A stretch of 64,000 nt of DNA, from positions 160,001 to 224,000 of the forward strand of contig CAXXQS010000002.1 of assembly GCA_963674735.2 (NCBI GenBank). Direction: 5' to 3'. The position numbers and the translations under genes were made by a program. The notes beneath the pieces are model-generated. The model was given only the letters and a program-made list of their open reading frames with translations, searched no databases and was not told the origin of the DNA. This document shows positions 1-30,044 of this stretch, piece by piece. The stretch's first letter is position 1. The number at the start of each line of letters is the position of its first letter. This DNA is from Myxococcota bacterium (GTDB lineage: Bacteria; Myxococcota_A; SURF-8).

Positions 1-297
1 CAGGGATGGATTTCGTCGGTACCGCTTCCGCCCGACGAACGGAGGTTTCTGGAATCGAGGCCCGATAAATCGGAGAAAAAGTCCGAGTCCAAGACCGTCA
101 AGACCCTGAAGGCCGATGGTTGTGAAAACATCACACCCATCACCGAACCGGACTCCGATGCCACGCCGGTCGCTATCGCCGAACCGCCTGAAATCGTCCA
201 GAACGCCGTTTCCGAGCCCGGTATGGACGAGGACACCAGTTCGACCCATCTCGACGGCCAGGACGCCGATACGCAGCAGAAACTAACCCTGTTGTGA
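1..297 (+). CDS. 3' end of a hypothetical protein (partial, not in the ORF track)
   Basis: Frame 1 is open from base 1 (QGWISSVPLPPDERR...DTQQKLTLL) to TGA 295-297, which overlaps the GTG of the next ORF (GTGA). Confidence 0.55.
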   Translation, partial: QGWISSVPLPPDERRFLESRPDKSEKKSESKTVKTLKADGCENITPITEPDSDATPVAIAEPPEIVQNAVSEPGMDEDTSSTHLDGQDADTQQKLTLL

Positions 298-599
298 GCA
301 TCACTGGGCCGCTCCAACCGGTTGAAACTTTGCCGGTTGGAAGCGACCCGGTTACAGACGGAGAATCCATAATGACGTTAAGCACACCATTCGTCTGTAT
401 CGAAGGTAACTGGTTCGTGGCGGTCGAATGGCGGCCAGATGAACCGTTGCCAACCACGATGACCCTCCGGGCGTTGGACAAACAAGAGGTTGAATGGTTG
501 GAGCCTCGATTAGTCGACGCCAGCGCGGACGCGTGGGCCAGGATGTTTCAGAACGATGATGCAATCAGGAACGGTGCAGAACCGTCAGATGAGGATTGA
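294..599 (+). CDS. Hypothetical protein
   Basis: 101-aa ORF coupled to the upstream stop; no recognised motif. Confidence 0.5.
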   Translation: MSITGPLQPVETLPVGSDPVTDGESIMTLSTPFVCIEGNWFVAVEWRPDEPLPTTMTLRALDKQEVEWLEPRLVDASADAWARMFQNDDAIRNGAEPSDED

Positions 600-609
600 T
601 TAGATGTGG

Positions 610-822
610 TCAGAACAGCTCGGTAACATCAACATCCAGGGCACGGGCGATTTTGTAGATGGTCGTGATGGTGGGATTCCGCTCTCCCCTTTCAATGCCG
701 CCGATGTATGTCCTGTGGATGCCGATAAGGTCGGCAAACCCCTCCTGCGACCATTCCCGGTCTTCCCTCAGTTGCCGTACCCGGCGTCCAAATTCAATAC
801 ATTCTGAACCTTGCTTCTTCAT
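610..822 (-). CDS. XRE/HTH_3 regulator, RM controller (C) protein-like
   Basis: 70 aa with FGRRVRQLR..SQEGFADLIGIHRTYIGGIERGERNPT; the HRTY recognition helix is typical of C.PvuII/C.BamHI-type proteins. Confidence 0.9.
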   Translation of the reverse strand: MKKQGSECIEFGRRVRQLREDREWSQEGFADLIGIHRTYIGGIERGERNPTITTIYKIARALDVDVTELF

Positions 823-844
823 AGGAAGGATAATTCATTGAAAA

Positions 845-897
845 TACTTGACAGTCTACAGACTATGAGTAGCATTCGTAATGAAGACTAAAAGTAG
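845..897 (-). promoter_or_regulatory. C-box operator upstream of the C gene, plus an extra site
   Basis: Minus strand reads AATGC-TACT-CAT-AGTC-TGTA-GACT-GTCAAGTA, matching the GACT-N3-AGTC-TGTA-GACT C-box pattern. A further TACT-TTT-AGTC lies at 886-896. Plus-strand TTGACA at 848-853 overlaps the box. Confidence 0.75.
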
Positions 898-957
898 CGG
901 GTGGCGACTCATTTGCCGTCGATACTTGCCCCAACTGGGGAAATAGGAAGGTTTGCC

Positions 958-1818
958 ATGAAATATGCAGTGGGAATTTGGATTATTGCGACGCTTCTGT
1001 TTTCCGGGTGCCATTCGGGGACGGTAACGACCCATGATGATCCCGATGGTGATTCTGACGGGAAAAGATTAGAGGATGGTGACGGGTCAATACCCGATGG
1101 TGATACCGAGAATGATTTAGAAAACGACGCCGAGGATGGAGACACTATCGAACTGGATGGGTATATCGACTCGGATGGTGATAGCGAAAATGCCGAGGAT
1201 GGTAACGACGTACCGGAATGGGAAACTTGCCCACCGGATGAAGAATATGCTGCCCCCCATTCTTGTGAAGACATGCAAGGCACCTGCCCGGATGATCAAG
1301 TGTGCCTTATCTTTAGCGATGACATCAGTTGGTGTCTTGAGTGGAACCTTAATGCTGGATCATATGGGTGGAACCCTCCGTTGGACAACCCCACCAAAGA
1401 AGACTACCCCGAACCTCCGGAAGGTTACAGCGGTCTTGGTTCTGGGGGCATCTGGTTAATGGCTTGTACGAACGACCTGTGGGAATGCGAAGACGGGGAT
1501 GTGTGCTGTGATGATACTACGGAGCTCTACTACCCCGAAGGCTATACATGGGGTAATCCCGCCAAAGGATACATCTACCAGTGCGACGCCGAACATGAAC
1601 TCCATCTCCTTCCGACGAATGGGTGGTGTATCATCGGTTATAGCACGACGCCTTACAGGCCGGATTACGTTGTGAGGGATCTGGAAGCCAACCCCGACAA
1701 CTACTGTGAAGTTTGCGACGTGACCATCAGCCAGACCGAATGGACGCCCCGCACCGAGGGTGTTGGTTGCGGACAAGGTATGGTCTGTGACGGTGAAGGA
1801 AACTGCGTGGAACAGTAG
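958..1818 (+). CDS. Lipoprotein with DGD acidic stalk and Cys-rich domain
   Basis: ATG 958 after GGAAGG; signal MKYAVGIWIIATLLFSG-C; DGD-rich linker; Cys-rich C-terminus. Confidence 0.8.
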   Translation: MKYAVGIWIIATLLFSGCHSGTVTTHDDPDGDSDGKRLEDGDGSIPDGDTENDLENDAEDGDTIELDGYIDSDGDSENAEDGNDVPEWETCPPDEEYAAPHSCEDMQGTCPDDQVCLIFSDDISWCLEWNLNAGSYGWNPPLDNPTKEDYPEPPEGYSGLGSGGIWLMACTNDLWECEDGDVCCDDTTELYYPEGYTWGNPAKGYIYQCDAEHELHLLPTNGWCIIGYSTTPYRPDYVVRDLEANPDNYCEVCDVTISQTEWTPRTEGVGCGQGMVCDGEGNCVEQ

Positions 1819-1819
1819 G

Positions 1820-2158
1820 TCACTCCCGAATAAGTTCTATAACCTCACGCAGAGCGTCCCCGACAATCCGAACCTGTTCCCGTCGGTAGGCTTTGTCCTC
1901 GATTCGGGCCACGGCGAACGATTCGATGAGTGCCCGCGCCATTGTCCGTAATGTCCATGTCGGGTCATCGGCGTCACCGGTGGCGTATGGGATGTGAAGT
2001 TCTGTTGCTAAAGCCTCGATAAACCACCGGGCAAGAGTGTCGGCATCGTTATGGGAGCGGATGAATTGAAGCAGGTCGTTCAACCGGCGTTCGGATTCGT
2101 CCTGGTCGGCAGGGGCGGTCATGTTCAGTTCTCGGGCGTAATCGCTAAGTGAAAGCAT
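1820..2158 (-). CDS. Hypothetical helical protein
   Basis: 112 aa with a GGAGG RBS upstream, supplied by the adjacent repeat. Confidence 0.55.
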   Translation of the reverse strand: MLSLSDYARELNMTAPADQDESERRLNDLLQFIRSHNDADTLARWFIEALATELHIPYATGDADDPTWTLRTMARALIESFAVARIEDKAYRREQVRIVGDALREVIELIRE

Positions 2159-2167
2159 GGCAGGTAC

Positions 2168-2345
2168 CTCCTACCAGGATGTGCCGATAGCAATGAAACC
2201 GAACCGCACCCTCGAACCAACAAAACAAATCGAGAAAACGCTTTGCTGAAACCAGACGGTAGTTGACCCATGCCGGTGCCTTAACCGCCGCAGAAACACC
2301 CTTTCCGCTCAATGAATGATGTACGGGATGGCAGTCGAAACACAT
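2168..2345 (+). repeat. Island dispersed repeat, copy A
   Basis: Blocks CCTCCTACCAGGATGTGCCGATA, CAAAACAAATCGAGAAA and AACCGCCGCAGAAA-N-TTTCCGCTC recur at about 7443-7480, 10168-10261 and 11210-11354. Confidence 0.8.
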
Positions 2346-2570
2346 AATTGCTGGTTGGTTTGCGAGCTAAGACATGGATAAACTATGCGTGGCTTGAAGC
2401 TTGTTTTAGTTCAGTCCGGATAATCAATATCCTATCGAAACTTAATATAAATATTCAGAGCAATTGAATACTATTTTTGTTGACAAGGCATTTATGATTG
2501 TATATGTAATTAATTAGGACTGACTTGCCACACATACCGTCCTCCAATCTCAATCGCGGGAGAAACTGCC

Positions 2571-5500
2571 ATGCGTCTTGCTGTTGTTGTGTCTATTTGC
2601 TTGGTCCTTTTAGTGGTGATGACGCACGGAACCGTTTTTGCCCAAGAAACAGAATCCGAAATGCTGGAACTGAAAGCACTTAAAGATGCTTTCGGATATG
2701 AGGAAAACGACACGGACGAAATCCGCTGGCGTAAGTATACGTCCGCTCCTGCTTCGGTCAGGCAGGCATTGTGGAACCACCGTCTGACCCAGATAAATTC
2801 ATCCAAAACCGAGCAATTTCAAGAACGCATTGGGAAAGAAATACCCGATTACGTGGATGCTAAGGGTAAGGTAGCCAGTAAGCTTGAATCCATGTATGAG
2901 GAATCAGCTGGCGATTTGGTGGCTAAATGGAACGAAGTCTATGAATTCCCTCGACTGGTTGCCAACATCTGGCGGGAAGATTTGGCTGAAAATGAGGATG
3001 AAGCGCTGGCTTTGTTGCTGAAAGAACACGGACAAGATCTTGAAGAGCTTTTCGGCGTTCGTTTCGATGAAAACGTTTTTCTTACTCATACTGAAAGAGG
3101 CGGTGATGAAGTCGTCCGCTTTTTCTTTGAACACGCTGAATACGGTTACAAAGTTCCCAGAGAATTTATCGATATCACTCTTTCCCGTAGTCCCATTACG
3201 AAGAAATGGTACTTCCTGCAAGCCAGTGCCAAGCTTTCCTATTATGGTTTCTACCAGCCGAAAAGTGTCATTGAGCGGCATGAAGCCGGTACGTTGGCTG
3301 AATGCCAGAGTGATGAGAATCAGGCTTCTGCCGCTTGGCAAGAGCCGGTGTGGTGGCAAGGTGATTATCGTCGTTACCTTGTTTGGGCTTATAATATTAG
3401 TATCAATGAAACTCCCAAAGATATTGTTATTGATGTTGAAACTGGAGAAACTATTGCTACTTTGGGATATGGACAAGGGAATTGGATTGGGGGCAATGTT
3501 CAAGCAGAAGATATCTGGTCACACGATCTAAGAGATTATTTCAACTCATCTATTGATTTAAAACATGTTGGCATCTGGGCAGATGGTGGTAATTTTTTAG
3601 ATACTATAGATGCAAATGGGGATTGGTATTTTCAAAACGCTTACAGTAATACGACTGTAATTAACAGATTAACGAATCTTTTTTATGATTATTTGGGAGT
3701 TCCCCACAATTCTTTGTCTGAGCAGATTGGAATTCGTATTTCTGATGAGTACCAAATAAATTATGCATCCGATGTAACAAGTATTCCGCAAGGAACTAGT
3801 GGTTCATATGTTGCGGCGTTAAATGCTAGCACTAATTATCTTTATGATACTCTTGACAGTCAAGCATCAAACCCAGGTTCCTTGTCATGGGTCAATATGT
3901 ACTATAATGCACTTCTTGCTGTTGATACATTAAGAAGCAATGCATACAACACTTCCGACTTTGATGATAATCGTATTGATTATTACTCTCCGCTAAGCAA
4001 TGAGTCTGGAGCGAATGCTTCTTATGGCGCGCTTAACCACTGTATTATTACTTTGAATATCCCTACCAGCCCTTCTGCAGAATTGCGATGGCCAGATTTC
4101 ACTGGCCCCAATGGCGGAGGCGGAAAAGGCAGTATTCAAATTGCCCTTCATGAACTCGGTCATTGTTTACTTGGAACGGTTCGACATTTCTATGGTCATA
4201 ATTATTCTGGAGTATTTTCTCCTTCTGGAACTATTCGTTACGAAGACGATACCGATTGGGGACAGTGTTACGCTGGATCGCATAATCCTATTCCATGCTC
4301 ATTCGATATTGACTGTATAGTAGCTGGCTACAATAAGTGTAATCCCAATGATGGATACTGCCTTAAAGCCTGTAACGATGCCGATGATTGTGCCGAATAC
4401 TTTGGCACTTATGAAAGTACTTATTTCAGAGTCTGCCAAAATTTAACAATAGGAGGGGTGACAAATTCTTATTGTGGAATGAATGTTAGCAATGCATCTC
4501 CTGGGACGGCGTTTCATGATATGACGGCCGATCTTGTAAAGGATACATTCAGGCGCACACACTCAACCAATCTTGAATATGATGTCTATTTTAACAATCC
4601 ACTTTCAGAGAGTAAAAAATGGGGCGGTTTGGGTGAACCAAACGATGCCTGCCCCGAGGATTGTTATTCTCATAATCCTTACTGTTTCAGAATTTGGGCA
4701 CTTATTTTTCAACAACTTCGTTCTTTTGTCGGTTGGCAATATTTTCTTCCGATTGCTTTTGCCAGTACACTTGATGGGGGTATGAATGGCGGATTTGATG
4801 AAATTGCTTACCACTCAACAAGCAGTGATTTATTAATTCGTGCATTGTATGATGAAAATGGTGATAATCGTTCAGGAGTTGATCCTGTTTTAACGATGGA
4901 AATCGAAAAATCATATCGAAGTGGGTTTCAGGTAGCTTACAATGCGAATATGCCCATCGCGGATGATGTAACAGACGTCACCTACCATTCGATCTACATC
5001 AATCCCACCGATGGAGTGGACGCGTACGGAAACTCCAAGGAACATCTCTATCGGCGAAACCCCGTCACCAATAACAACGCAACGTTACGAATTCAGAATT
5101 GTCAGCGAAGTTCATCGCGCGACCAGGATCGCTTTGTTTTCTATGGACTACAAGGCATCAAGTATCGTATCGAAGGAGATGACAGCCTGTATGCCACCGA
5201 TGAGAATGCACTCGACCTGCACATGTATTTGTACAAGAACAGCACCTCAACGCAAGTTGGCTACAGTGACGACTATGCGTCCGGTGATAATCCGGTCATT
5301 TATTATACACCAACAGAAAATGGCTGGTATTACATCAAGCTTTTGAATACTGACCAAAGTGGGGTTGGACGATACGGTGTTCGGATCAAGACCTATAAAT
5401 ACAACTATATTCTCTCTAGCGATGACTATGCAAACGAACGTCTGGGAGCCTATCCGCTGGCGCGAGACAACCAACTGTCGGTTTCGAACTCATACTCCTA

Positions 5501-6248
5501 TCTAGATGGAAAATTAAACTATAGTGGAGACGTAGACTGGTTTAAAGTTCATATTCCAAGTGGAGCACCCAGCTTTTTACGAGCTGATGTTTTCAACATG
5601 GGGTCAAATAGTGCGGATGTTTCTTTGTACAATGCCTCTGGCAGTCTTCTTTCTTGGACATGCATTGGTACATATGATCGGACTTGCTACTACACAAATG
5701 CAGTTATTGATAGCTGGTACTACATTAAAGTTGCAGAAAGATCTGGATATTCCAGGGGACAATACAGAATTCGTGCATTTCAAAGCACCGACGAAGATGG
5801 TTTTGATAGTTCATCTTCGTATCCAGCATCATTAGAATTGGATATTGGCAGTCATCCAATCTATTCGGAGATCATACATGATTTCAACGATGTGGACTAT
5901 TACAGCCTTTCTGTCAATGAAGGTGATCGCGTTGTTATTGACACTTTCTCGCATACCGACGGTTTGAAAACGCGCATTGTAGCCTTGGTAAACGAAACAG
6001 GTAGTTGGGGAAGCGGTGATTTTGATAATATGAATTACGGTTTTTGGCCCCTTGCCTTTGATGAAGGGGGCGGCTTAACCGATGCTGATACAACCGAAGG
6101 TAGCACCTCACATCTAGTCGTGTCATCCGTTACGACCGGAATCATGTACATTCGTATTTCTAGCCAAAGGAACGATTCAACCGGAAAATATGAAATAGCC
6201 GTACGAAAGAACAATGGGTCGCAGATCCCGGACGTGGATGAATTCTGA
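2571..6248 (+). CDS. Secreted zinc metallopeptidase-like protein (PepSY-like prodomain, HEXXH, C-terminal PPC-like domains)
   Basis: Signal peptide ending VFA-Q; VIDVETGETI prodomain-like motif; LHELGH; repeated D(Q/V)D(R/W/Y)(F/Y)...YYIK...G.Y PPC-like modules. Confidence 0.75.
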   Translation: MRLAVVVSICLVLLVVMTHGTVFAQETESEMLELKALKDAFGYEENDTDEIRWRKYTSAPASVRQALWNHRLTQINSSKTEQFQERIGKEIPDYVDAKGKVASKLESMYEESAGDLVAKWNEVYEFPRLVANIWREDLAENEDEALALLLKEHGQDLEELFGVRFDENVFLTHTERGGDEVVRFFFEHAEYGYKVPREFIDITLSRSPITKKWYFLQASAKLSYYGFYQPKSVIERHEAGTLAECQSDENQASAAWQEPVWWQGDYRRYLVWAYNISINETPKDIVIDVETGETIATLGYGQGNWIGGNVQAEDIWSHDLRDYFNSSIDLKHVGIWADGGNFLDTIDANGDWYFQNAYSNTTVINRLTNLFYDYLGVPHNSLSEQIGIRISDEYQINYASDVTSIPQGTSGSYVAALNASTNYLYDTLDSQASNPGSLSWVNMYYNALLAVDTLRSNAYNTSDFDDNRIDYYSPLSNESGANASYGALNHCIITLNIPTSPSAELRWPDFTGPNGGGGKGSIQIALHELGHCLLGTVRHFYGHNYSGVFSPSGTIRYEDDTDWGQCYAGSHNPIPCSFDIDCIVAGYNKCNPNDGYCLKACNDADDCAEYFGTYESTYFRVCQNLTIGGVTNSYCGMNVSNASPGTAFHDMTADLVKDTFRRTHSTNLEYDVYFNNPLSESKKWGGLGEPNDACPEDCYSHNPYCFRIWALIFQQLRSFVGWQYFLPIAFASTLDGGMNGGFDEIAYHSTSSDLLIRALYDENGDNRSGVDPVLTMEIEKSYRSGFQVAYNANMPIADDVTDVTYHSIYINPTDGVDAYGNSKEHLYRRNPVTNNNATLRIQNCQRSSSRDQDRFVFYGLQGIKYRIEGDDSLYATDENALDLHMYLYKNSTSTQVGYSDDYASGDNPVIYYTPTENGWYYIKLLNTDQSGVGRYGVRIKTYKYNYILSSDDYANERLGAYPLARDNQLSVSNSYSYLDGKLNYSGDVDWFKVHIPSGAPSFLRADVFNMGSNSADVSLYNASGSLLSWTCIGTYDRTCYYTNAVIDSWYYIKVAERSGYSRGQYRIRAFQSTDEDGFDSSSSYPASLELDIGSHPIYSEIIHDFNDVDYYSLSVNEGDRVVIDTFSHTDGLKTRIVALVNETGSWGSGDFDNMNYGFWPLAFDEGGGLTDADTTEGSTSHLVVSSVTTGIMYIRISSQRNDSTGKYEIAVRKNNGSQIPDVDEF

Positions 6249-6273
6249 GAAACACCAGTTATAGGAGCTCACC

Positions 6274-7101
6274 ATGCAAAGAAGACATTTAACATCATCG
6301 TTTTCTATCTGGGTGCTGGTTGTTCTTATATCAGCTTGCAGTTCGGAATCCGATCCGGATTTGGGTTGGGTATCTATTCCGGCGGGTTCTTTTACCATGG
6401 GCTGTGAATCCTTTGAATCTTGTTTTGATTCTATTTGTTCATTCTGGACATGTGGAGCTTATGAATACCCGCAACGGACGGTCTCTGTCCCGCTTTTCGA
6501 GATAATGGCCACCGAGGTCACGCAAGCACAGTACAAAGCCGTTATCAGTACAAATCCTTTGGCGGGAACAAGCCAAGATTGTCGCGATTGCCCGGTTCAT
6601 CATGTATCCTGGCATGAGGCCCGCGTCTTTTGCGAAACCGTAGGTGGCCGATTGCCCAGCGACGCCGAGTGGGAATACGCCGCCCATGCCGGAACGGAAG
6701 GTCTCTATTATTGCGGTGATGAGATTTGCGGAAAAGATGTGGAGATTGAGGACTGCTGTCTATTCGACATCGCTTGGATTGCGGAAAGCGGCGGAGGCTC
6801 TGTACAGCCTGTGAGTCAGAAGCAGCCGAACGATTTTGGTCTTTACGATGTTTTAGGTAATGTGGCTGAATGGGTAGAAGACTGCGGGCATTATTCCAAT
6901 GATGATGCTCCGACTGACGGCAGCGCCTGGACGGAAAATTGTTCAAATTTTCCCAATTTTGATAATCACATAGCCGCGATTCATCGAGGAGGAAAGGCTG
7001 CCAGCACATACCGGGAGGTCGCTATACCAAATAGACATTATACTTCCCGCAATACCTATGAGATTCAGGTTGGTTTCCGCTGCGCTCGAGATGGGGAGTA
7101 G
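6274..7101 (+). CDS. FGE-sulfatase (SUMF1/EgtB/PvdO-like) domain lipoprotein
   Basis: Lipobox ISA-C; IPAGSFTMG, TEVTQAQY, RLPSDAEWEYAA, PNDFGLYDVLGNVAEW, GFRCAR. Confidence 0.88.
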   Translation: MQRRHLTSSFSIWVLVVLISACSSESDPDLGWVSIPAGSFTMGCESFESCFDSICSFWTCGAYEYPQRTVSVPLFEIMATEVTQAQYKAVISTNPLAGTSQDCRDCPVHHVSWHEARVFCETVGGRLPSDAEWEYAAHAGTEGLYYCGDEICGKDVEIEDCCLFDIAWIAESGGGSVQPVSQKQPNDFGLYDVLGNVAEWVEDCGHYSNDDAPTDGSAWTENCSNFPNFDNHIAAIHRGGKAASTYREVAIPNRHYTSRNTYEIQVGFRCARDGE

Positions 7102-7283
7102 ATGTAGACAAAGATTTCGTTTGACACGTCCTAAGATTCTTTTCCAAACTCGCTGACGTTAACGCAAGGAGAAGGACACTGCTACAGCATCATCTCGGTC
7201 ACCACCCAACAACAGACCCTAATTCGGCCCATGCCGAGATGATTGGTTTTTAAATCCCCCATCACCGAACTCGGTGTCGTCCC

Positions 7284-7666
7284 AAACAGGTCCCAGGGCT
7301 CCATATTCGGTCCTGGACGAGCGTTCTCGATGGGAGACGACATTACCCCGGCAAAAGTCCAATCAACAGCGTGGGGACGTTGAAAGGGAAGACACCGAGG
7401 CAGGTAGCTGCATCACCCGCGATACCCGTGCCCGGCTGATGCCCTCCTACCGGGGTATGCCGATATAGATTCTAAACCGGTCCCAGGACTCCATATTCGG
7501 CCCTGGACGAGTGTTCTCAGGGTGAGACGACTACTGACCCGGCACAAGCCCGATCAACAGCGTGGGGATGTTTATCGGAAGGACACCGAGGCAGGTAGCC
7601 GCGTCACATGCGTCACCTTGGCCCTACGGATGGCCTCTTGCCGGGCGAGGTCGGTACGGGTCATCC
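7284..7666 (+). repeat. Two diverged tandem ~190-bp units (7284-7473, 7474-7666), island repeat copy B
   Basis: Both units share GGTCCCAGG.CTCCATATTCGG.CCTGGACGAG, ATCAACAGCGTGGGGA and GACACCGAGGCAGGTAGC. The minus strand reads GISRARVSRVMQLP and MTRTDLARQEAIRRAKVTHVTRLP. Confidence 0.85.
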
Positions 7667-7776
7667 GACTTTTTTGTTGCAAGAGCTCCTAGAAAAGATA
7701 TTATAAGGCTTAATCAATTCAACGCAGTATCATCTGGCGGTTTCGGACGAATGCCGCCAATATTGAGGAGGGTTGC

Positions 7777-9846
7777 ATGAAACGTAATCTCTCGCTTTGG
7801 GTGTTTCTGGTGTGCGTAATTGTTGCGTTATCTCTGGTCGGTTGTAACGGTGGCGAATCAGATCCGGAGGGAGACGAGCCGGACGGCGACGAAATTGATG
7901 GCGATGGTATGGACGGTGATGGAAGCGATGGCGATATGGCGGATGGCGACATCCCTGATGGTGATGAGCCCGACGGTGATGTGATCGACGGGGACGGCAT
8001 CGATGGGGATATCGTGGATGGCGATGAGATAGACGGAGATGACGTAGATGGTGACGACGTAGACGGTGATAGCGTGGATGGTGACGGTGTGGATGGCGAC
8101 GCTGAGCAGGAAAACTATTTCAGGATTGCCGTGATATCGGGGTTGAAATACTCCTACTCTCACTACTCGATGGCCGACAACCTGAATGATGCCATTTCGT
8201 TCATCAATGCGCGCGATGATGTGGATTTCGTTCTGGTGCTCGGAGACTTGACCGTGTTCTATGCCACCAAGGCCCATACTCGGGACGAGGAGCCGACCTA
8301 CGAGGATTTCGCCGCTGATACGAAAACGGTGCTCGATACCCTGACCGTGCCGTATTACATCGTACCCGGGGATATGGACTACACCGAGAGTGTTTCCGTA
8401 CTGGATGGAGCCAGGGCGCACGAGTGGGTGACCAACAAAGCCACGCGCACGACGTTTTTGAAAAGCAACTGGGGCGATCACTACCCCGGCACCGGATTCT
8501 GGTACAGCTTTGAGCATCGAGGCATCAACTTCGTCGGACTCAATACCATGCTGGGTGACTACGGCGATCCCGTGGCCGGTCATGTCGGCTCCATCACTTC
8601 TCAAGCGGCCGGGTTGCAGAGTGTCTTTACCGGTCACGATGACGTGATTGTTTTCGGTCACCACCAGCCGGCCCTGACGCTGGAAGGGACGGGCGAAACC
8701 ACCTATTCCGATGTGATTGCCGCAAACAATGAAAAGGTGAAAGCCGTGTTTTCCGCCAGTACGGAAGAATTTCGGCAACAGTGGTTCAACAGCAAGCAAT
8801 ATTTTACTTTCGGTTCCACTGCCAATCGTGCCGAAAACGTGGCGATTGTCGAGATTCCGCTGACCGACGACCGTCTGGAAATGATCAACAAAGGGGATCT
8901 CCACTTCCAAAACGAAAGTGGTGCAGGCAGCTGTACACCGGGATCGAATATGATTGCCGATGAAAGTGATTTGCTCGATACGATACAAGGGGTTTTCATC
9001 AGCTCCTGGACTGCCAATTTTCCGGCCTTGCATCTTTTCTGGAATTTGATCGGCAAAGATCAGAACCACCGATCTTTCCCGCTGATGTTACATTTCAGGG
9101 AACTGGTCAGTGATGTGTTCACCGTCGTTTTCGCATTCGGCCAGTTCAGTCATAACGCTGAAGCCGGAACGCGCAGCGTCACTCAGTATGATGACTGGTA
9201 CTCCACTTGCGAAGCTTTGAGTTTCGATTTCGACAATCCCTGCCTGGTCGATCAAGCTCCGAACAGCAAGGTTTCCTCCGGTTTCGATGTCGATCTCCTG
9301 GGAGTGTTCGACATCCTCGGATATGCGCGTGAATGCGGGGCCACTATGCCCTTGACGGTTTCCGATTACACCTTTACTTTGCAGGCCGAAGAGGAGACGA
9401 AAAGCGAGCATTCGACGTATCTGAGTGGCGCGGAAATCAACGTGCCGTACGACGACTTGAAAGAGTCGATCGAGACCTTCATGATTCAGGCGTATTGCAC
9501 GGACGATTGTACCTATACGGTCTATGGAGATGCAAACTGCTACGCCGGTGGGCATGGGCACACCGGAGCTTGTTTGGGGGGAACGTTGGCGTTTGCCGAT
9601 ATTCCCTCAAGCTGCGATTACCAGATCGGCGGAAGTGATTTGGCGCTGAGTCTGCGTACCCTACATGCCTTGGTTTCGGAGAAAAGCGGGGAGACCATCA
9701 CGATCACCACCCGGGCCACGATCGCACATCAAATGGTAATTATGAGCCATAGCGAGTATACGGACGAGGGAGAAAAAACACCGTATTCCCTCAATGCCGA
9801 TGCGGTTTTCAACCCCGACAACACGACCTGCCCGGAAGCAAGATAA
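7777..9846 (+). CDS. Lipoprotein: 16 x (D/E)GD pentapeptide stalk, degenerate calcineurin-like phosphoesterase domain, unknown C-terminal domain
   Basis: GAGGAGG RBS; lipobox LVG-C; FRIAVIS, DFVLVLGDLT, PYYIVPGDMD, WYSFEHRGINFVGLNT, VFGHHQP. Confidence 0.85.
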   Translation: MKRNLSLWVFLVCVIVALSLVGCNGGESDPEGDEPDGDEIDGDGMDGDGSDGDMADGDIPDGDEPDGDVIDGDGIDGDIVDGDEIDGDDVDGDDVDGDSVDGDGVDGDAEQENYFRIAVISGLKYSYSHYSMADNLNDAISFINARDDVDFVLVLGDLTVFYATKAHTRDEEPTYEDFAADTKTVLDTLTVPYYIVPGDMDYTESVSVLDGARAHEWVTNKATRTTFLKSNWGDHYPGTGFWYSFEHRGINFVGLNTMLGDYGDPVAGHVGSITSQAAGLQSVFTGHDDVIVFGHHQPALTLEGTGETTYSDVIAANNEKVKAVFSASTEEFRQQWFNSKQYFTFGSTANRAENVAIVEIPLTDDRLEMINKGDLHFQNESGAGSCTPGSNMIADESDLLDTIQGVFISSWTANFPALHLFWNLIGKDQNHRSFPLMLHFRELVSDVFTVVFAFGQFSHNAEAGTRSVTQYDDWYSTCEALSFDFDNPCLVDQAPNSKVSSGFDVDLLGVFDILGYARECGATMPLTVSDYTFTLQAEEETKSEHSTYLSGAEINVPYDDLKESIETFMIQAYCTDDCTYTVYGDANCYAGGHGHTGACLGGTLAFADIPSSCDYQIGGSDLALSLRTLHALVSEKSGETITITTRATIAHQMVIMSHSEYTDEGEKTPYSLNADAVFNPDNTTCPEAR

Positions 9847-9866
9847 GTTCGGGCATCACCCCAAAC

Positions 9867-9901
9867 CACACGCCCCTCGGAAGTATTCCGGGGGGCGTGT
9901 G
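9867..9901 (+). terminator. Hairpin, probable terminator
   Basis: CACACGCCCCTCGGAA-GTA-TTCCGGGGGGCGTGTG, 20 nt after the stop codon; weak U-tail. Confidence 0.6.
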
Positions 9902-9987
9902 TTCGTTGCGCGACCTCCTAGAAAGGACTCGTTTGACCTTAGAAGGCGGGTAACCTTTACTGACTTGAGAATATTTTTAATGTGGCA

Positions 9988-10270
9988 GTCCCCAACCAAC
10001 TCCAGCGCCTGCCGGATAGACATCGAACCGGCATCACAGTCCGGCAAATCAACTTGTCCTGTCCGTCAAGCTTTCAACCCGCTCCACCGTCAACGTACAC
10101 GCCCCGAACTGCTCGTCCACCTTGCCGGTCAGGACGAATGGGTGGCCGTAATCCAGGATGGAACCGGACCAACAAAACAAATAGAGAAAGCGTTTTATCG
10201 AAACCTGACGGCAGATGCCCGAGCCCCATGCCAAACCGCCGCAGAAACAACGTTTACGCTCGAAATACAT
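9988..10270 (+). repeat. Island dispersed repeat, copy C (interrupted by a dnaE-like fragment)
   Basis: CGCCTGCCGGATAGACATCGAACC matches 11124-11147; 10168-10261 matches 2216-2310 and 11259-11354. Confidence 0.8.
10049..10159 (-). pseudogene. Remnant resembling the extreme C-terminus (OB fold end) of DNA polymerase III alpha / DnaE2
   Basis: ILDYGHPFVLTGKVDEQFGACTLTVERVESL resembles the P(Y/F)xLxGKV(E/D)ExFGAxTLTV tail of DnaE-family proteins; recognised from memory only. Confidence 0.55.
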
Positions 10271-10394
10271 ACCGTTTGGATTCCGTATCCTGCTCCTACC
10301 CCAATTTCCTGAATGAAGTTGCGAAATTGGTTACTTATGATATATTTTGGCCCATCGCCTAAATTTGGAATTGAATATGATGGTGGGAGCGGAC

Positions 10395-10955
10395 ATGAAA
10401 CGGATTTTGTTTGGAATAACGGCTAACACTCTTCTCTTCGCACTGTTTTTCCTGCTTCCCTTCACCGGGATCGCTCAAGAAGGTCCCAGGCCCTGTCTTA
10501 CCGGCACAATCATCATCGGCGAAGGTGATCATGCAGGCAAGATCGAGCTACAAGGATTCCCCTTCACGCAATACATCGACAAAGGCCCAAATCATCGCCC
10601 TGGGAAAAGGACCTTGAGCTGTCGTAGCGGCTTTAGTGGCAACATTGTCATCAATGAAACCAACGGTCGCTACAAACTCCCAGATGGAACGTTCCCTGGC
10701 TACAAGCCATATTTGGTCATCAAGGGAGACTCCCCTCCTATGATTCTTCTGCGAAAGGATGGAGGAGGTATGAAATTCACCATTGGCCCAGTCTATCGAG
10801 TGACAGAAAACTACCTGCGGAACGGAAGCGAGCCTCGCTTCAAGGTGGTCACCCGGATGAAGGGACAGACCATTGGAGAAGGTCGCTGCTACAGTACCAT
10901 CCCCGCTGAAACGCAAAAACGGACCATCCTCACCAAGCAAGAAGGTACGCCGTGA
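10395..10955 (+). CDS. Secreted hypothetical protein
   Basis: ATG 10395 after GGAG; signal MKRILFG...TGIA-Q. Confidence 0.7.
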   Translation: MKRILFGITANTLLFALFFLLPFTGIAQEGPRPCLTGTIIIGEGDHAGKIELQGFPFTQYIDKGPNHRPGKRTLSCRSGFSGNIVINETNGRYKLPDGTFPGYKPYLVIKGDSPPMILLRKDGGGMKFTIGPVYRVTENYLRNGSEPRFKVVTRMKGQTIGEGRCYSTIPAETQKRTILTKQEGTP

Positions 10956-11099
10956 TTCGCCACCACTCCCGCGCGCCGCTCCGTCCTACGTAAAAAAAAG
11001 CAGAAGGAACTCTTCCTCACGCTCGGTTCATCCCGAACCGAGCGTGGCTTTCGTTTCTTGACTTCCCAGAAAGTTTATTATAGGAAGTCAGGCTGGCAA

Positions 11100-11354
11100 T
11101 CATACTTCCCGAGCTAAATCCAACGCCTGCCGTATAGACATCGAACCAATATCAAAATCTGGCAATTCGAGCAACTTCATCACCTGAGTTACCCGTGCCC
11201 GGCTGATGTTCTTCTGTCGGGGTATACCGACAGGAAGGAAACCGACCCGCACCCTCGGACCAGCAAAACAAATCGAGAAAGCACTTTCTCGATTTCAGCC
11301 TATTTAGTTACTCATGCCCGATGCCGAACCGTCGCAGAAAGGCCATTTACGCTC
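11100..11354 (+). repeat. Island dispersed repeat, copy D, with ParB-like HTH remnant on the minus strand
   Basis: Minus strand reads NISRARVTQVMKLLELPDFDIGSMSIRQALDLAREV* (stop 11100-11102). Perfect inverted repeat AAATCGAGAAA-GCAC-TTTCTCGATTT at 11270-11295. Confidence 0.8.
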
Positions 11355-11508
11355 GTAGAATGGGCACTCATTACAGCAGCATATTAGCCTTCCGAATATT
11401 CCAGATCATGTTTGATTTCTTTTTGAATAATAAACTCTGATATGGTAGCTTCAAACGAATCGCAAATTGGTGCAATCTTCTACAAAACTCCTTTCTAGGA
11501 GAGTTAGT

Positions 11509-14500
11509 ATGAAATCATTATGCGTGATGATAATCGGCCTTATTTCAATACTTATTGTTACTGGTTGCGACAGCAGTGGTTCGTCCGGGGACAATATCGT
11601 TGACGGCGACCAGGAACAGGATATCCCTGTCGTTGATGGTGATGTCGATGACGATGAATCCGAAGATGCGGAAGAAAATGGCGACATCGGATGCATGGAA
11701 TCTGTCCAACTCGGCCTTGAGGATAACATCCTCGATTTTGGCGCTGTTTCCGTCGGAGCTGATCAATCCAAATCCTTCACCATTACGGCCGACCCGCCGA
11801 CCATCATCAAGTCGCTTTCTATTTTCGACGATGATGAAACCAATGAATACTCGATCACGGTTGGTACTTGCACGAATGAAATCCAAGGAATTTGCCACGA
11901 GGCGACCGTCAATGAGAATGCATCCAACACTAGTCCGTACACGGTTACAATTTCCTATATCCCTCGAGATGCCGATTTGACCCATGATGATGCTTGGTTG
12001 CAAATCGAAACAGAAGACGACTGTGAGGACACGAAACGGGTGAAGCTGACTTCCCAGTGCAAAGGAACTCCGAACCTGAGGCTGAGCATCGACGATCAGG
12101 TCATTACGGGGAACGATTCTATTTTCTTCGAAACGGTTCTACCCAACTCCAGCGCCGATCCCGTCACCTTCAAGCTGGAAAACACCGGAGAAACCTCGGC
12201 CAACGCTCCGGTGTGGGTGAAGCTCGACCCGAATAACCAGTTCGCTGATTACTTCGAGTGGACGGATTGCGACTCCGTGGAGTTGACTTCCACGGGCTTT
12301 CTTATTGGTTCGGGGGAAGAAAAAGTCTGTACATTGAACTTCCGAGAGAAGGCGACCCCAGGTGAGTACACAGGAATGGTAAGCGTGTCCTGGAATTCCT
12401 CCTGCCAGGAGATAGACGGCAAGCTGGATCTGACCCTCTCCGGCCATGTCGCCGAGTGCGAGATTCTGGTGACACCGGACCCCACGCTACGTCTCGGTGA
12501 AGCAATCGCCAATGAAGAACGAGTAAGAGACCACTTCACCATCACCAACGCCTGTCCGTTCGATATGTACTGGACAGCTTGTGCGCTTGAAACCGGGATG
12601 GATTTCTCTGCGGATTGCCCGACCGGACGCACCAAACTGGAGCCTGATGATTCCACCACACTGGATATTAGCTTTCAACCAACCCAAGCAGATTGCCAGC
12701 TCGATCATCTGATCTTGACGTTCGAGCGTGAGGGTGGCGAAGGTGTGCAGACCCACGTGCGCGATGTGGCGGGATGCGGAACGCCTTGCACCTACCCGGG
12801 GTGCTGCCCACCGGACTCCGACAACTGTCAACCAGGTGATTATCGTTGTGAGGGTCAGGAACGTCAGACCTGCAACACCGTCTGCTACTGGACCACGGTG
12901 GAAGAATGTGCCGAGAACGAAACCTGCCTGGCGGTGGAGTGCGTCCCAGGCTGCTTCGACGGCCAACGCCAGTGCGACGGGCCCAAAAAGCTGGTATGCG
13001 AAGAAGGCGACTTTGTGTCCGACGGTATCTGTGACGATCAGAACCCCTGCACCACCGACTACTGCACGCTGGACGAGCAAGACCCGGATCACTGTTATAC
13101 AGTCAACCTGCCGAATGGGTCCGTCTGCGATGACGGCGATTCGGAAACCAGTAACACCGAATGCCAGGACGGCCAGTGTATAGAAGTCTTCGAATGCACG
13201 GACGATGGCGAGTGCTGCATTGACGGTGAAATTGTCAACGTGGCCGGAGCCTGCACGGACGACGGCAACGACTGTACCGACGACGAATGTGGCGATACCG
13301 GCGTTTGCACTCATCCAAACAAAGCTCCCGGTGCCACATGCGGAGATCAGACCGAGACCACCTGCTCGGCCCCGGATACCTGCGACGGAACGGGAACCTG
13401 CCAGCCCAACCATGCCTCGGACCAGACCGAATGCCGTCCGGAGGCAGAGGGAATACTCTGCGATGTAGCCGAGTATTGCCCCGGCGATGGCCCGGATTGC
13501 CCGGAAGATGGATACAAGTCCGACCAGACCGTCTGCCGCCCGGAAGCCGAGAGCAGCCTGTGCGACGTGGCCGAATATTGCACCGGAGATGGCCCCGATT
13601 GTCCGGTGGATAGTTTCAAAGCAGAAACGATATCCTGCCGAGCCGCCAACGATAGTGAATGCGACATCGAGGACTTCTGCCCCGGTGATTCAGCCGACTG
13701 CCCCGACAGCAAATCTACGGATATCTGCCGCGCCGCCGTGGACGATTGCGACTTCACCGAGATGTGCGACGGTGTGAACGACGACTGCCCGGAAAACGAC
13801 ATCATGGACGATGGCGAAGTCTGCGGCGAAGCGGATGAGAATCAGTGTTACCAGGGTGTTTGCGTCGACTGCGTGGATGACTACGGCTGCACCGATCTTG
13901 AGGATGACAGCCTGGAATGCTCCGAGCCGTCCTGTGATACGGAAAACCATACCTGTGAACACCAGCTTACCGCCCACGAAGGGGAGACGTGTGGTGAAAC
14001 CACCTCTTCTATCTGCGACGACGAGGACACCTGCGATGCCGACGGCATCTGCCAAGCCAACCACAAGCCGACCGATACACCCTGCCGCCCGTCCGAAGGT
14101 CTTTGCGATGTAGTGGAATACTGTGTCGAGGGTGGCGTCTGCCCTGAAGATGGTTTCAAGACCGGTGACGTGGTGTGCCGCGAATCGGAAGGCGAATGCG
14201 ACCTGGAGGAGCTTTGCACGGGAGATGCCGCCGCTTGTCCCGAGGACGCCAAGTCAACAGCCGAATGTCGTGCGGCGACCAACGAGTGCGATCTGGCAGA
14301 AGTCTGCAACGGCGTAAGCGATGACTGTCCGGGCGACGAGGCAAAGGACGACGGTGAGGTCTGTGGAGCAGGCGATCAATGCGTGGCGGGTTTCTGCGAA
14401 GATTGCTGGGATGGCACCGGCTGTGAGGATTTGCCCTGGGGGGTGCGGGATAGCGACTGCTCGGAGCGGGTATGTGGGACCGGGAACATCTGCGAATTTA

Positions 14501-19860: not shown

Positions 19861-19886
19861 ATCGGTTAACATAATGCCACTTTTCG

Positions 19887-19981
19887 TTGACAAATATTGA
19901 CAAACTTGCGGAGAAATAGGCTGAGAAGACGCCAGAACGGAGACTCAAAGAAACAAGTCGAGGGCTACCAAACCGTTGATA
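19887..19981. promoter_or_regulatory. Putative integrase arm-type repeats and IHF site next to att
   Basis: TTGACAAA direct repeat (19887-19894, 19897-19904). Minus-strand TATCAACGGTTTG (19969-19981) fits the IHF consensus WATCAANNNNTTR. Confidence 0.5.
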
Positions 19982-20050: not shown

Positions 20051-20099
20051 TTGCTTCGCATGCAAGAAGTAGGGAGTTCGAATCTCCTCACCTCCACCA
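20051..20099 (+). other. 3' half of tRNA-Ala(CGC), putative att site duplicated by integration
   Basis: TTGC-TT-CGC-AT-GCAA anticodon arm, GGGAG-TTCGAAT-CTCCT T arm, ...CTCCACCA end. No 5' acceptor strand or D arm upstream. Confidence 0.85.
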
Positions 20100-20110
20100 T
20101 TTACAAAACA

Positions 20111-29956: not shown

Positions 29957-30044
29957 TGGTACCGGAGGAGGGACTCGAACCCTCACATAGGCAAGCTATA
30001 CCAGATTTTGAGTCTAGCGCGTCTACCAATTCCGCCACTCCGGC
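29957..30044 (-). tRNA. tRNA-Leu(CAA)
   Basis: GCCGGAGTGGCGGAATTGGTAGACGCGCTAGACT-CAA-AATCTGG..GAGGGTTCGAGTCCCTCCTCCGGTACCA; long variable arm, encoded CCA. Confidence 0.97.

Follow-up and report, generated by a model that had tools for sequence, protein, structure and literature searches.

Diverged repeats ahead of exported-protein genes in a tRNA-Ala island may be seam modules of stepwise cargo gain

Introduction

Four intergenic regions of the window, by which we mean the whole stretch of 64,000 nucleotides analysed here and to which unprefixed coordinates refer, carry similar sequences ahead of genes for exported proteins. What are these repeats, and how did they come to stand there? The initial annotation had taken them for recombination sites, element ends or portable promoters, in an island grown by tandem accretion of repeat-plus-gene units into an integron-like store of surface proteins. 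We hold, with moderate confidence, that they are diverged and partly decayed seam modules from stepwise gain of cargo between related islands.

Results

The repeats lie in a tRNA-Ala island with a small family

The repeat array sits in the cargo half of a 43.1-kb island housed in tRNA-Ala(CGC), whose limits in this uncultured myxobacteria-like genome are now fixed by a perfect 51-bp direct repeat (C2:136929-136979 and window 20051-20101, that is C2:180051-180101; 51/51 bp). The left copy (attL) falls within the tRNA-Ala(CGC) gene at C2:136902-136977, the repeat being the 3' part of the tRNA, and no full tRNA was called at the right copy (attR). A 376-aa ORF for a tyrosine integrase (C2:137066-138196, minus strand; PF00589, E 5.8e-19) is found 87 bp off the att core, beside attL at the left end of the island, where the initial annotation had advised looking for a recombinase; it is ~24 kb from the first repeat. 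After it come a resolvase-type recombinase (PF00239, E 1e-47), an excisionase-type HTH protein, methylases and a type I restriction-modification system. Many backbone genes of the island are without a known family, and the scan of island genes recognised none for conjugation or mobilisation. The features that frame the cargo half are the following.

294..599, plus strand: the island family's last conserved backbone gene, 101 aa, family-less
610..822, minus strand: XRE-type HTH regulator (PF01381, E 2.8e-19)
19886..19909, plus strand: att arm motif GTTGACAAATATTGACAAACTTGC, five own-genome copies at <=3 mismatches
20051..20101, plus strand: attR, 51-bp perfect copy of the tRNA-Ala(CGC) 3' part (100% to C2:136929-136979)

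Homologs of gene 294..599 occur in 6 of the 401 phylum genomes searched, all six in one and the same order, which defines a small island family whose seams reuse one module and whose cargo is mostly large lipoproteins and secreted proteins. This gene is 42% identical (E 1e-20) to the one directly upstream of a copy of the main repeat block (block A, below) in G002 C349, and gene 610..822 with its upstream region is 68-71% identical in DNA to islands of G001 and G006. Four of the five own-genome arm motifs lie beside a tRNA gene or tRNA fragment and the fifth in an island on C1; the motif is also present in islands of G002 and G006. The genomes compared are all from other genera than the present one (G000), and a 9.7-kb stretch had no syntenic match in 40 of them.

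Four intergenic regions share diverged, co-oriented blocks

A repeat finder and blastn of the intergenic regions against each other recovered every block that had been named, with all copies direct, so that the description of four regions (R1 to R4) sharing mosaic blocks in one orientation stands (blastn E 1e-8 to 4e-21). Block A, ~95-135 bp, was found in R1, R3 and R4, in agreement with the three ~95-bp copies reported, at 73-79% identity: 2184-2318 matches 11227-11362 (76%, E 4e-21), 2213-2310 matches 10165-10261 (79%, E 2e-18) and 10165-10262 matches 11256-11355 (73%, E 9e-12). The linker was likewise recovered at its three places (2167-2189 against 7443-7465, 87%; 7408-7463 against 11175-11230, 82%), and R2, where 190 bp are duplicated in tandem (7284-7454 against 7474-7645, 79%, E 3e-38), has a fourth, degenerate copy in the second of its two halves. 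Two blocks had gone unlisted, namely a C block (9989-10050 against 11107-11168, 79%) and a P block of 24 nt at 7673, 9902 and 11050 (three matches at <=3 mismatches, with 0 expected in 100 shuffles).

2213..2318, unstranded: block A copy 1, palindrome decayed (repeat search; canonical hairpin absent from fold)
7673..7698, plus strand: P block copy 1, which overlaps a promoter-like site (TTGCAA, 16 nt, TATTAT) ahead of gene 7777
9902..9927, plus strand: P block copy 2, directly after hairpin 9867-9901
10165..10262, unstranded: block A copy 2, palindrome decayed (repeat search and fold)
11050..11073, plus strand: P block copy 3, directly after terminator-like hairpin 11017-11047

The makeup of the mosaic differs from copy to copy, and reads L+A, (X-H-L) twice, C+dnaE2 fragment+A, and C+H+L+A. 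Extra pairs returned by the repeat finder over 1-16000 were short (18-29 nt), none of them bracketing a block. Across the whole genome of 5,264,779 bp, the non-self matches of R1-R4 all fall in window 2160-11362, save for 10077-10162; the block A copies stand at cargo boundaries only, bar one weak core copy outside the island, at C2:1541882. The regions end 226, 111, 125 and 155 bp before the next plus-strand start codon, and the genes that follow encode a signal peptide or a lipobox, as had been stated.

The blocks read best on the minus strand

It is on the minus strand that the blocks read best. Small leftward genes have a Shine-Dalgarno leader, GGTAGGAGG, and the CCTCCTACC linker is that leader in reverse complement, a role that had been overlooked. 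In R1 both leader and gene are intact; in R2-R4 the leader is decayed.

1820..2158, minus strand: small leftward gene, intact, 112 aa, with the linker as its leader (GGAGG 9 nt before the ATG at 2158)
2159..2203, minus strand: R1 linker, the 5' leader with Shine-Dalgarno of gene 1820-2158 (reverse-complement identity)

The 112-aa protein, for which profile searches gave no family match, has a homolog in G002 C376 (41% identity, E 2e-13) behind the same leader and block A, and this leader also precedes small leftward genes in G002 C60, C38 and C376, in G000 C1 and in G006 C1.

Upstream of the Shine-Dalgarno leader stands block A (~100 nt), which is non-coding DNA; the indels by which its copies differ do not have lengths divisible by three. 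On the minus strand it holds a 30-nt core and then a 26-bp palindrome, followed in window-type copies by a T-rich tail. Two dyad-symmetric motifs with AGAAA-type half-sites, TCGAGAAAG-CA-CTTTCTCGA and GCAGAAACG-C-CGTTTACGC, are contained in it, and its sharp left edge adjoins three different sequences. The identity of the core is 0.79-0.85 in every comparison, ~80% across genera, and drops to 0.16-0.47 in the flanks, within the window or between genomes. As the core remains ~80% identical at any distance between copies, it is likely a working cis element, and this flat conservation argues that block A is more than a footprint. The palindrome is a perfect 26 bp in R4 (11270-11295), with a T-rich tail on the minus strand, on which its hairpin of -14 kcal/mol is terminator-like; the right arms are decayed in R1 and R3, and the central dinucleotide is CA in R4 and CG in R1 and R3.

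Such an anatomy, an unstructured but conserved core and a terminator hairpin, could be that of a family of small minus-strand RNAs or 3'-UTR-derived RNAs, since R4 and the metagenome copy L090 both have a strong minus-strand hairpin and a T-rich tail after the core. We consider this very improbable: RNAalifold on 13 block A copies gave 4 consensus pairs for the minus strand and 0 for the plus strand, none of them supported by compensatory change, Rfam gave no match to block A at E up to 0.1 and 1, the G002-type copies are without a T tail, and the hairpin is decayed in R1 and R3.

R2 to R4 keep putative gene remnants and, in R3, a dnaE2-type fragment

The presence of gene fragments in R2-R4 had also been overlooked. 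Judged from ORFs and DNA repeats alone, these regions appear to keep fragments of a small HTH-like gene.

7284..7656, minus strand: R2, putative HTH-like gene fragment, tandemly duplicated (190 bp), with linker and without block A (blastn, repeats)
9989..10050, minus strand: C block of R3, putative 3' fragment of the HTH-like gene (79% to 11107-11168; peptide match E 0.0018)
10077..10162, minus strand: 86 bp copied from a dnaE2-type polymerase gene, 3' region, between C block and block A in R3
11107..11362, minus strand: R4, most complete module, with putative HTH-like gene remnant and leader, Shine-Dalgarno lost, and block A

R2 also has a minus-strand ORF at 7572-7682. The HTH-like fragments gave no Pfam match even at E up to 10, and no relative in 151 genomes. 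The dnaE2-type fragment has sharp edges and is 88% identical to the genome's own C1:1735022-1735107, 92% to G003 and 90% to G006, and so nearer to the genes of these two genomes than to the own gene; an integrase remnant comes after the own dnaE2-type gene. The fragment is possibly an att relic of a different element, and a second copy proving an att pair was not found.

Cargo units have promoter-like and terminator-like sites, and one leader is shared with another genus

The genes between the repeats are set out below.

901..1818, plus strand: Cys-rich lipoprotein, first cargo gene, probable ATG at 958 (ORF, lipobox LLFSGC), without family match
2571..7101, plus strand: cargo unit 1, a 1225-aa secreted protein (GC3 0.38) and a 275-aa FGE-sulfatase lipoprotein (ORFs, domain search)
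7777..9846, plus strand: cargo unit 2, metallophosphoesterase-like lipoprotein (ORF, domain search)
10263..10397, plus strand: promoter-like stretch (TTGCGA, 16 nt, TATATT, TG-extended) and RBS GGGAGCGGACATG, also in G002 C349
10395..10955, plus strand: cargo unit 3, 186-aa secreted protein, family-less (ORF, domain search)
11509..19860, plus strand: cargo unit 4, giant lipoprotein of 2783 aa with FGE-sulfatase, Lcl_C and disintegrin-like repeats (ORF, domain search)

These proteins had been called unrelated, which is borne out by BLASTP except that an FGE-sulfatase domain is common to 6274-7101 and 11509-19860. The FGE gene body of unit 1 is 92% identical to C1:617365-618122, elsewhere in the genome, and the protein of unit 3 is found in one of the 10 genomes of the order, its own. 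With GC3 ranging from 0.38 to 0.63, the unrelated proteins and the FGE copy elsewhere, the cargo would seem to be of mixed origin. In run X4, of an unrelated study, contigs are ~96-98% identical to gene 7777-9846, and one of 1491 nt stays at ~98% after this gene and leaves the window at 9898, the start of P block 2, which, at a depth of 2 and in contigs only, hints at strain variation.

Genes 7777 and 10395 are preceded by promoter-like sites, and genes 9846 and 10955 are followed by terminator-like hairpins, both going by consensus scans only. The stretch 10263-10397 aligns with G002 C349 at a local score of 38, where shuffles averaged 15.8 (sd 2.3; z = 10). This homology reaches the ATG, and the coding sequences behind it are unrelated, which hints that exported-protein genes were swapped behind a shared leader. 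This pair, with its common promoter-like stretch and RBS, speaks for the proposal of a portable promoter. The leader regions downstream of R1, R3, R4 and P1 are mutually dissimilar (z -0.1 to 2.6).

The block may on the other hand be a regulatory module first, a portable operator and promoter through which a single DNA-binding protein encoded by the island would control the exported-protein genes and the small leftward genes alike, with the seam position secondary. The dyad-symmetric motifs, the core near 80% at all distances and the leader shared before unrelated genes would agree with it, as would a leftward gene start ~100-200 nt off in 5/14 copies (R1, G002 C60a, C38, C376 and C2:1541882) and a rightward gene within ~300 nt in 5/14 (R1, R3, R4, G002 C349 and C60a). 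We judge it unlikely, nonetheless, given the dissimilar leaders, the palindrome decayed in 2/3 window copies, the lack of a suitably placed gene at G002 C65, at the right side of C38 and at L090, and the upstream region of the conserved XRE gene, whose own palindrome is a different one.

The module recurs at seams of related islands

A covariance model of block A matched 3/10 genomes of the order, at 4 places in G000, 7 in G002 and 2 in G006; the fourth G000 match, C2:1541882, is ~5.4 kb beyond a tRNA-Thr att junction. In these islands the module stands at seams of backbone, cargo and att, before different cargo, and the search that had been recommended in relatives thus found the same block before other genes in G002. 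There, C349 has the order backbone gene, block A, thioredoxin-like cargo, and C60 the order small gene, block A, ParB-methylase, block A, four genes, arm motif, tRNA fragment; in C38 and C65 the block is ~0.5 kb from tRNA-Thr and tmRNA. G006 C1 keeps the gene order of the window as far as the small gene with its leader, past which come two arm motifs with a fragment of tRNA-Thr between them, and then a giant lipoprotein; in G006 the core is also found immediately beyond the left inverted repeat of an IS1595-like element. A tandem junction exists in the own genome as well, at tRNA-Thr C2:1522824, with a 45-bp repeat at 1536391 and then a terminator and arm motif.

Tandem accretion had been proposed for the present island. 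The island is real, and internal att copies between units, the hallmark of accretion, are met elsewhere in its family (C2:1536391 and G006 C1). Between C2:137071 and 179860, however, no match to the tRNA-Ala att core of attL/attR exceeds 17 nt, and between the cargo units there is neither a tRNA fragment longer than 13 nt nor a copy of the arm motif. Classical accretion at the island's own att site is therefore unsupported, and the route by which units were added is one that we infer.

Local duplication alone, one ancestral unit having been copied in place and cargo inserted or replaced independently, would account for copies that are all direct and within 9.2 kb and whose divergence of 17-27% is similar to that of the R2 duplication (79% identity). 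The R2 duplication does mean that such repeats also arise locally. As the whole explanation it is improbable, for each copy is a different mosaic, one with foreign DNA, the genes between are unrelated and differ widely in GC3, and the module occurs at the seams of separate islands, at seven places in the assembly of a relative (G002).

Block A as a possible but improbable site of site-specific recombination

Several classes of mobile DNA were set aside. The integrase scores 35 bits with the integron-integrase model TIGR02249, against a cut-off of 265, and is instead a tyrosine recombinase of the generic tRNA-island kind. On neither strand do the blocks have a conserved fold, and they lie 111-226 bp upstream of genes, in accordance with the earlier statement that they are not attC-like. 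Together with the genes' own promoter-like and terminator-like sites in the consensus scans, these results leave the idea of an integron-like store unsupported. Nor is a MITE or IS remnant supported, as the six intergenic regions compared have no terminal inverted repeats, their only inverted matches being short hairpins. Unsupported too was a res or crossover site, since close relatives of the resolvase are in islands without block A (G000 C1:603130, 71%; G001; G006).

An active cassette system with non-integron sites and enzyme was weighed on its own, in which units of block A plus an exported-protein gene are excised, captured and reshuffled by the small serine recombinase or the tyrosine integrase of the island. 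Arrays of block A, gene, block A are found in two genera (window 10165-11362; G002 C60 148-2423), the left edge of the block is sharp and its core conserved, and a resolvase-type recombinase is encoded in the island. Serine-recombinase crossover sites have a geometry of 12+2+12 bp, and so has the R4 palindrome. Against this, the resolvase relatives live in islands without the block; the 340 bp ahead of the resolvase gene hold no palindrome of the block type, and half-site counts over the island show no enrichment (4 seen against 2.6 expected); the central dinucleotides differ and the right arms of R1 and R3 are decayed; no A-A joint was seen in four runs (contigs only); and the integrase scores far under the integron cut-off. 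We think such activity improbable, and consider equally slight the chance that block A is the active, portable capture and expression site of an undescribed gene-cassette system in this uncultured myxobacteria-like order. If it were, a ~100-nt site with a constrained 30-nt core and a 12+2+12 palindrome would be read by an island-encoded protein, and exported-protein genes would be exchanged precisely at block edges and, on the other side, at the start codon or signal peptide; this would explain unrelated coding sequences behind the same block, promoter and RBS in two genera.

Discussion

The reading that we prefer for R1-R4, seam modules, can be put as follows. The module would consist of block A and the Shine-Dalgarno leader of a small leftward gene, and belong to a family of tRNA-targeting islands in this order. 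The cargo half may have been built stepwise, related islands or island fragments recombining with the resident island, either at shared module sequence or by tandem integration and then deletion, and each event may have brought one or two exported-protein genes together with a seam module. That the modules precede the cargo, and do not follow it, is easier to reconcile with recombination at the module than with simple tandem integration. Under stepwise assembly the modules are mainly footprints of it, and the conserved core, with the palindrome where intact, is probably still cis-acting as operator, promoter or terminator. Stepwise growth is known island behaviour, and ordinary island biology in a little-known lineage.

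Serine-recombinase res and hix sites resemble block A in the 26-bp palindrome of R4, with its asymmetric 2-bp centre, and in the presence of a resolvase gene in the island; they differ in that site presence here does not track the recombinase, none being beside the resolvase gene, and that 2/3 window copies are decayed. Integrons likewise hold co-oriented, unrelated genes, each by a variable non-coding repeat of ~60-140 bp, whereas here there is no IntI-type integrase, the integrase is at the tRNA, ~24 kb off, the repeats do not fold in an attC-like way and stand 5' of genes with promoter-like and terminator-like sites of their own, and the gene sequence in a unit reaches 8.4 kb.

Islands and cis-mobilizable elements are known to accrete in tandem. 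The Streptococcus elements related to ICESt1/ICESt3 and the ssrA islands of Dehalococcoides grow by side-by-side addition of units, and decayed units without integration genes persist (PMC5704250, PMC3146451, both of which cite Pavlovic et al. 2004). An att core copy bounds each unit in such systems; in the present island there is no internal att copy of its own type, and the repeat is the leader of a small gene with its upstream module, preceding the cargo.

There is also a likeness with tRNA-integrated islands and integrative mobilizable elements that have a tyrosine integrase, which share the integrase by the tRNA, the perfect repetition of the tRNA 3' part, in direct orientation, at the opposite end, an excisionase-type HTH protein, defence genes, secreted-protein cargo, mixed base composition and a narrow lineage. 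The present island differs in its many family-less backbone genes, in the lack of recognised conjugation or mobilisation genes among those scanned, and in the repeated seam module that punctuates its cargo half.

Repeat blocks of the intergenic regions

Four intergenic regions of the window, named R1 to R4, contain real repeats. As the initial annotation had described, they hold common blocks that are all in direct orientation, which was confirmed with a repeat finder, on the raw sequence and by blastn of region against region.

Repeat-bearing intergenic regions (window positions)
2168-2345: R1, one linker copy and block A
7284-7666: R2, a 190-bp tandem duplication (79%) with two linker copies and without block A
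9988-10270: R3, block A and a 62-bp block in common with R4
11100-11354: R4, one linker copy, block A and the 62-bp block in common with R3

The three copies of block A exhibit 73-79% identity (E 9e-12 to 4e-21, blastn among the intergenic regions). A 24-nt P block is present at 7673, 9902 and 11050, i.e. three matches compared with none in 100 shuffles. Its core (CTCCTAGAAAGGAG) is also found inverted at 11488-11501; there it forms part of the giant gene's leader and includes the Shine-Dalgarno of that gene.

Over the whole genome (5,264,779 bp), in which the window corresponds to C2:160001-224000, the non-self hits of R1-R4 are confined to window positions 2160-11362, with the single exception of 10077-10162, which matches C1:1735022-1735107 with 88% identity. 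Plus-strand start codons follow 226, 111, 125 and 155 bp downstream of R1, R2, R3 and R4, respectively. The cargo had been described as unrelated exported proteins; every product indeed starts with a signal peptide or a lipobox, and the products are unrelated except for an FGE-sulfatase domain present in two of them.

Limits of the tRNA-Ala island

At its left end, where the initial annotation had proposed to look for a recombinase, the island has one adjoining a tRNA gene.

Features of the island, from the tRNA gene to attR
C2:136902-136977: tRNA-Ala(CGC) gene
adjoining the tRNA, minus strand: 376-aa tyrosine integrase
after the integrase: resolvase-type serine recombinase
after the resolvase: excisionase-type HTH
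after the excisionase-type HTH: two large genes, unassigned
after the two large genes: DNA methylases and a type I restriction-modification system
after the restriction-modification system: winged-helix protein
window 20051-20101: attR, next to the giant gene on its right, identical over all 51 bp to the tRNA-Ala(CGC) 3' part

No full tRNA is called at 20051-20101. The tRNA-Ala repeat pair, together with the gene set of the integrase end, delimits an island of 43.1 kb, of which the repeat array occupies the att-distal cargo half. The cargo genes have GC3 values of 0.38-0.63 and the base composition is patchy. A 24-nt arm motif is located 47 nt past tRNA-Ala, with a second copy 141 nt ahead of attR; elsewhere in this genome it occurs in three places, two beside a tRNA gene or tRNA fragment and one in an island of contig C1. 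The P blocks do not align with the arms and were rejected as decayed arm motifs. The tRNA-Leu gene at window 29957-30044 was likewise rejected as an att site, as it has no repeat.

Minus-strand anatomy of the module

The linker sequence CCTCCTACC is the reverse complement of GGTAGGAGG, a Shine-Dalgarno sequence.

Features of the module (window positions)
1820-2158, minus strand: small leftward gene, intact, 112 aa, with the R1 Shine-Dalgarno 9 nt ahead of its ATG at 2158
11100-11252, minus strand: HTH-like ORF of R4, 50 codons
11270-11295: perfect palindrome (12+2+12) of R4, left of the block A core

Its position ahead of an intact minus-strand gene identifies the linker as the 5' leader of a gene that runs leftward, with block A upstream of this leader. 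The most complete copy is R4, which presents, in minus-strand order, block A, a leader with a mutated Shine-Dalgarno and the HTH-like ORF. R3 retains block A and the 3' end of this ORF, with 86 bp of the 3' region of a polymerase gene in between, while R2 retains the 5' part of the ORF and the leader in two copies and has no block A.

The HTH-like ORF has no Pfam match (E up to 10), and its R4 peptide finds its own genome as sole match among 151 genomes of the phylum, which leaves its status as a gene remnant weak. Judged by eye, the R4 peptide resembles an excisionase-type HTH, a likeness that none of the tools supports. The small minus-strand peptides match nothing in Pfam (E up to 10) or NCBIfam, and the two small proteins of 112 and 73 aa retrieved nothing but themselves in word-indexed protein searches. 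In G002, a fragmented assembly from a different genus of the family, a homolog of the 112-aa protein (E 2e-13) is encoded behind the same leader and block. Another type of small gene with this leader has no demonstrable relation to the 112-aa type (E 0.087).

An IS1595-like element of another genome, G006, has a left inverted repeat that resembles the linker. This element has 24-bp terminal inverted repeats and lies in a 1.9-kb exact repeat, L018 777-2675 (C3:202832-204730) and a second identical copy, which also spans about 0.8 kb of flanking DNA with the block A core and a gene for an RRM-type RNA-binding protein. The core is outside the element and other copies of the element do not have it, so the resemblance is taken as a likeness only.

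Conservation of block A

The block A set contains 14 copies: three in the window, a weak one at C2:1541882, seven in G002, one sequence in G006 (present twice) and two in metagenome contigs. Scanning a 185,579-species collection with the core pattern gave 25 loci, of which seven are from the G002 assembly and the other 18 do not extend past the core pattern itself. The same scan of metagenomes gave 35 loci, six of them real; four have bit scores equal to those of G002 copies and are probably the same DNA, and two (L090 and L069) are new.

Indels between copies of block A are not multiples of three, and no reading frame is common to the copies on either strand. RNAalifold predicted 0 plus-strand and 4 minus-strand pairs, and compensatory changes were absent. 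An Rfam scan of the repeat regions, together with the copies in relatives, returned tmRNA and tRNA alone, block A being unmatched.

Inside block A, a 30-nt core (GAACCGYCGCAGAAA...CCGTTTACGCTCG) presents an identity of 0.79-0.85 throughout, i.e. within the window, within G002, between the window and G002 and against remote copies. The segments beside it range from 0.16 to 0.47 within the window or between genomes, and from 0.32 to 0.65 within G002. This flat plateau of identity points to selection on the core. On the minus strand, the R4 palindrome forms a hairpin of -14 kcal/mol followed by a T-rich tail, terminator-like by scan; in R1 and R3 the right arm is decayed and the hairpin no longer forms. 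With its constrained core, block A is more than debris, and our preferred guess is a role as operator, promoter or terminator.

The proposed integron-like store was not supported. The integrase is a generic tyrosine recombinase that scores 35 bits with the integron-integrase model, for a cut-off of 265, and the defining features of integrons, attC sites, structured RNAs and MITEs were not found. The resolvase was rejected as the enzyme acting on block A, because its close relatives are found in islands without block A; no palindrome was found ahead of the resolvase gene, nor any enrichment of palindrome half-sites in the island. Consensus scans place promoter-like and terminator-like sites at the cargo genes themselves.

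Between block A and the ATG, R3 and contig C349 of G002 are alike: their alignment exceeds shuffles by 10 sd and contains 13 identical nt over the RBS and ATG, although the coding sequences that follow are unrelated. This result favours a portable leader. The cargo gene behind R3 has no relative in the order, and the remaining downstream regions of the window show no likeness to each other. For block A as an active capture site, we keep a small residual chance.

The polymerase-gene fragment of R3

The gene from which the 86-bp fragment was copied encodes Pfam DNA_pol3_alpha domains and is downstream of a Y-family polymerase gene, a pair which we take to be the imuB-dnaE2 arrangement. The fragment is nearer to the corresponding genes of two other genomes (G003 and G006) than to the polymerase gene of its own genome. 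At C1:1732124-1736041 (L002 7124-11041), the polymerase pair has directly behind it a tyrosine integrase in truncated form, with an open frame of 222 aa, and an FGE-sulfatase gene. The likeness to the G003 and G006 genes, together with the integrase remnant after the own gene, fits an att relic of one of the related elements proposed to have recombined here. The 3' end of the dnaE2-type polymerase gene may be an attachment site.

Position of the module in the island family

Relatives of the last backbone gene (294-599) occur in 6 of the 401 genomes searched in the phylum, and these six belong to one order. Contig C1 of G006 presents the same order as the window, i.e. backbone gene, XRE regulator (minus), lipoprotein (plus), small gene (minus) and the same leader, after which come an arm motif, a tRNA-Thr 3' fragment with a terminator, a second arm motif and a giant lipoprotein. 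The succession of arm, tRNA-Thr fragment and arm indicates an att junction between two elements. In G002, the backbone gene of C349 directly precedes a leader remnant, which is succeeded by block A and by a secreted protein of thioredoxin-like type, and C60 contains a small gene, block A, a ParB-methylase gene, block A, four genes, the arm motif and a tRNA-Val-like fragment. On C38 and C65 of the same assembly, the block is about 0.5 kb from tRNA-Thr and from tmRNA. These positions, with those in the islands of the own genome, place the module at the seams of the family, which forms tandem structures.

Several further features of these islands were observed. Directly past the attR fragment of G002 C60 (L014 4946-7499) is an array of RHS-type C-terminal fragments and small downstream genes, resembling orphan toxin-immunity modules. 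A second family island of the own genome (C2:1522824-1536507) starts at tRNA-Thr(CGT), at C2:1522824. A 45-bp direct repeat lies 13.5 kb downstream of this tRNA, at 1536391, and behind it come a terminator and an arm motif, a layout suggestive of a junction with another element in tandem; the fourth core copy of this genome, a weak one, is 5.4 kb past this repeat. Another family island (L114, C1:566001-586000) has its own internal repeat (GGGCAACATTCCCCTAAGTGGA...) flanking its small leftward gene, and a tRNA 3' fragment directly after the backbone gene. The XRE gene of the window and its upstream region (598-898) present 68-71% DNA identity to islands of G001 and G006; this homology ends shortly ahead of the first cargo gene, which is different in each island.

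Possible strain variation and proposed assembly of the cargo half

The stretch is found, as Logan contigs, in four sequencing runs, none on record as RNA. Three of them, from one study, match the window exactly, with contig breaks at the FGE-sulfatase paralog only. The fourth (X4, from a different study) has two low-depth contigs over 7614-9898 with approximately 96-98% identity. The second departs at 9898, the start of the second P block, and continues with 12 other letters, 28 letters like the third P block and a rest unlike the window. This is a single weak hint of a difference in content at a seam.

The body of the FGE-sulfatase lipoprotein gene (6334-7091) is 92% identical to C1:617365-618122, its first 60 nt (signal peptide) being unmatched, and its last 30 nt with 50 nt downstream are 95% identical to a third place, C2:844872-844950. 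These split matches indicate mosaic genes with swapped 5' ends.

We propose that the cargo half was assembled stepwise through recombination with related elements, each event leaving a seam module. Candidate routes are homologous exchange between modules, integration in tandem with later deletion, and local duplications like that of R2. The tandem accretion of repeat and cargo units proposed by the initial annotation agrees with the tandem junctions of the family; against it, neither the att core nor the arm has a copy in the interior of this island.

The locus is best filed as a tRNA-integrated composite island, an already-known kind. Streptococcal elements and Dehalococcoides ssrA islands are reported to grow by tandem accretion, and their decayed units to persist (PMC5704250, PMC3146451). 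Their units are bounded by att copies, whereas here a gene-leader module marks them.
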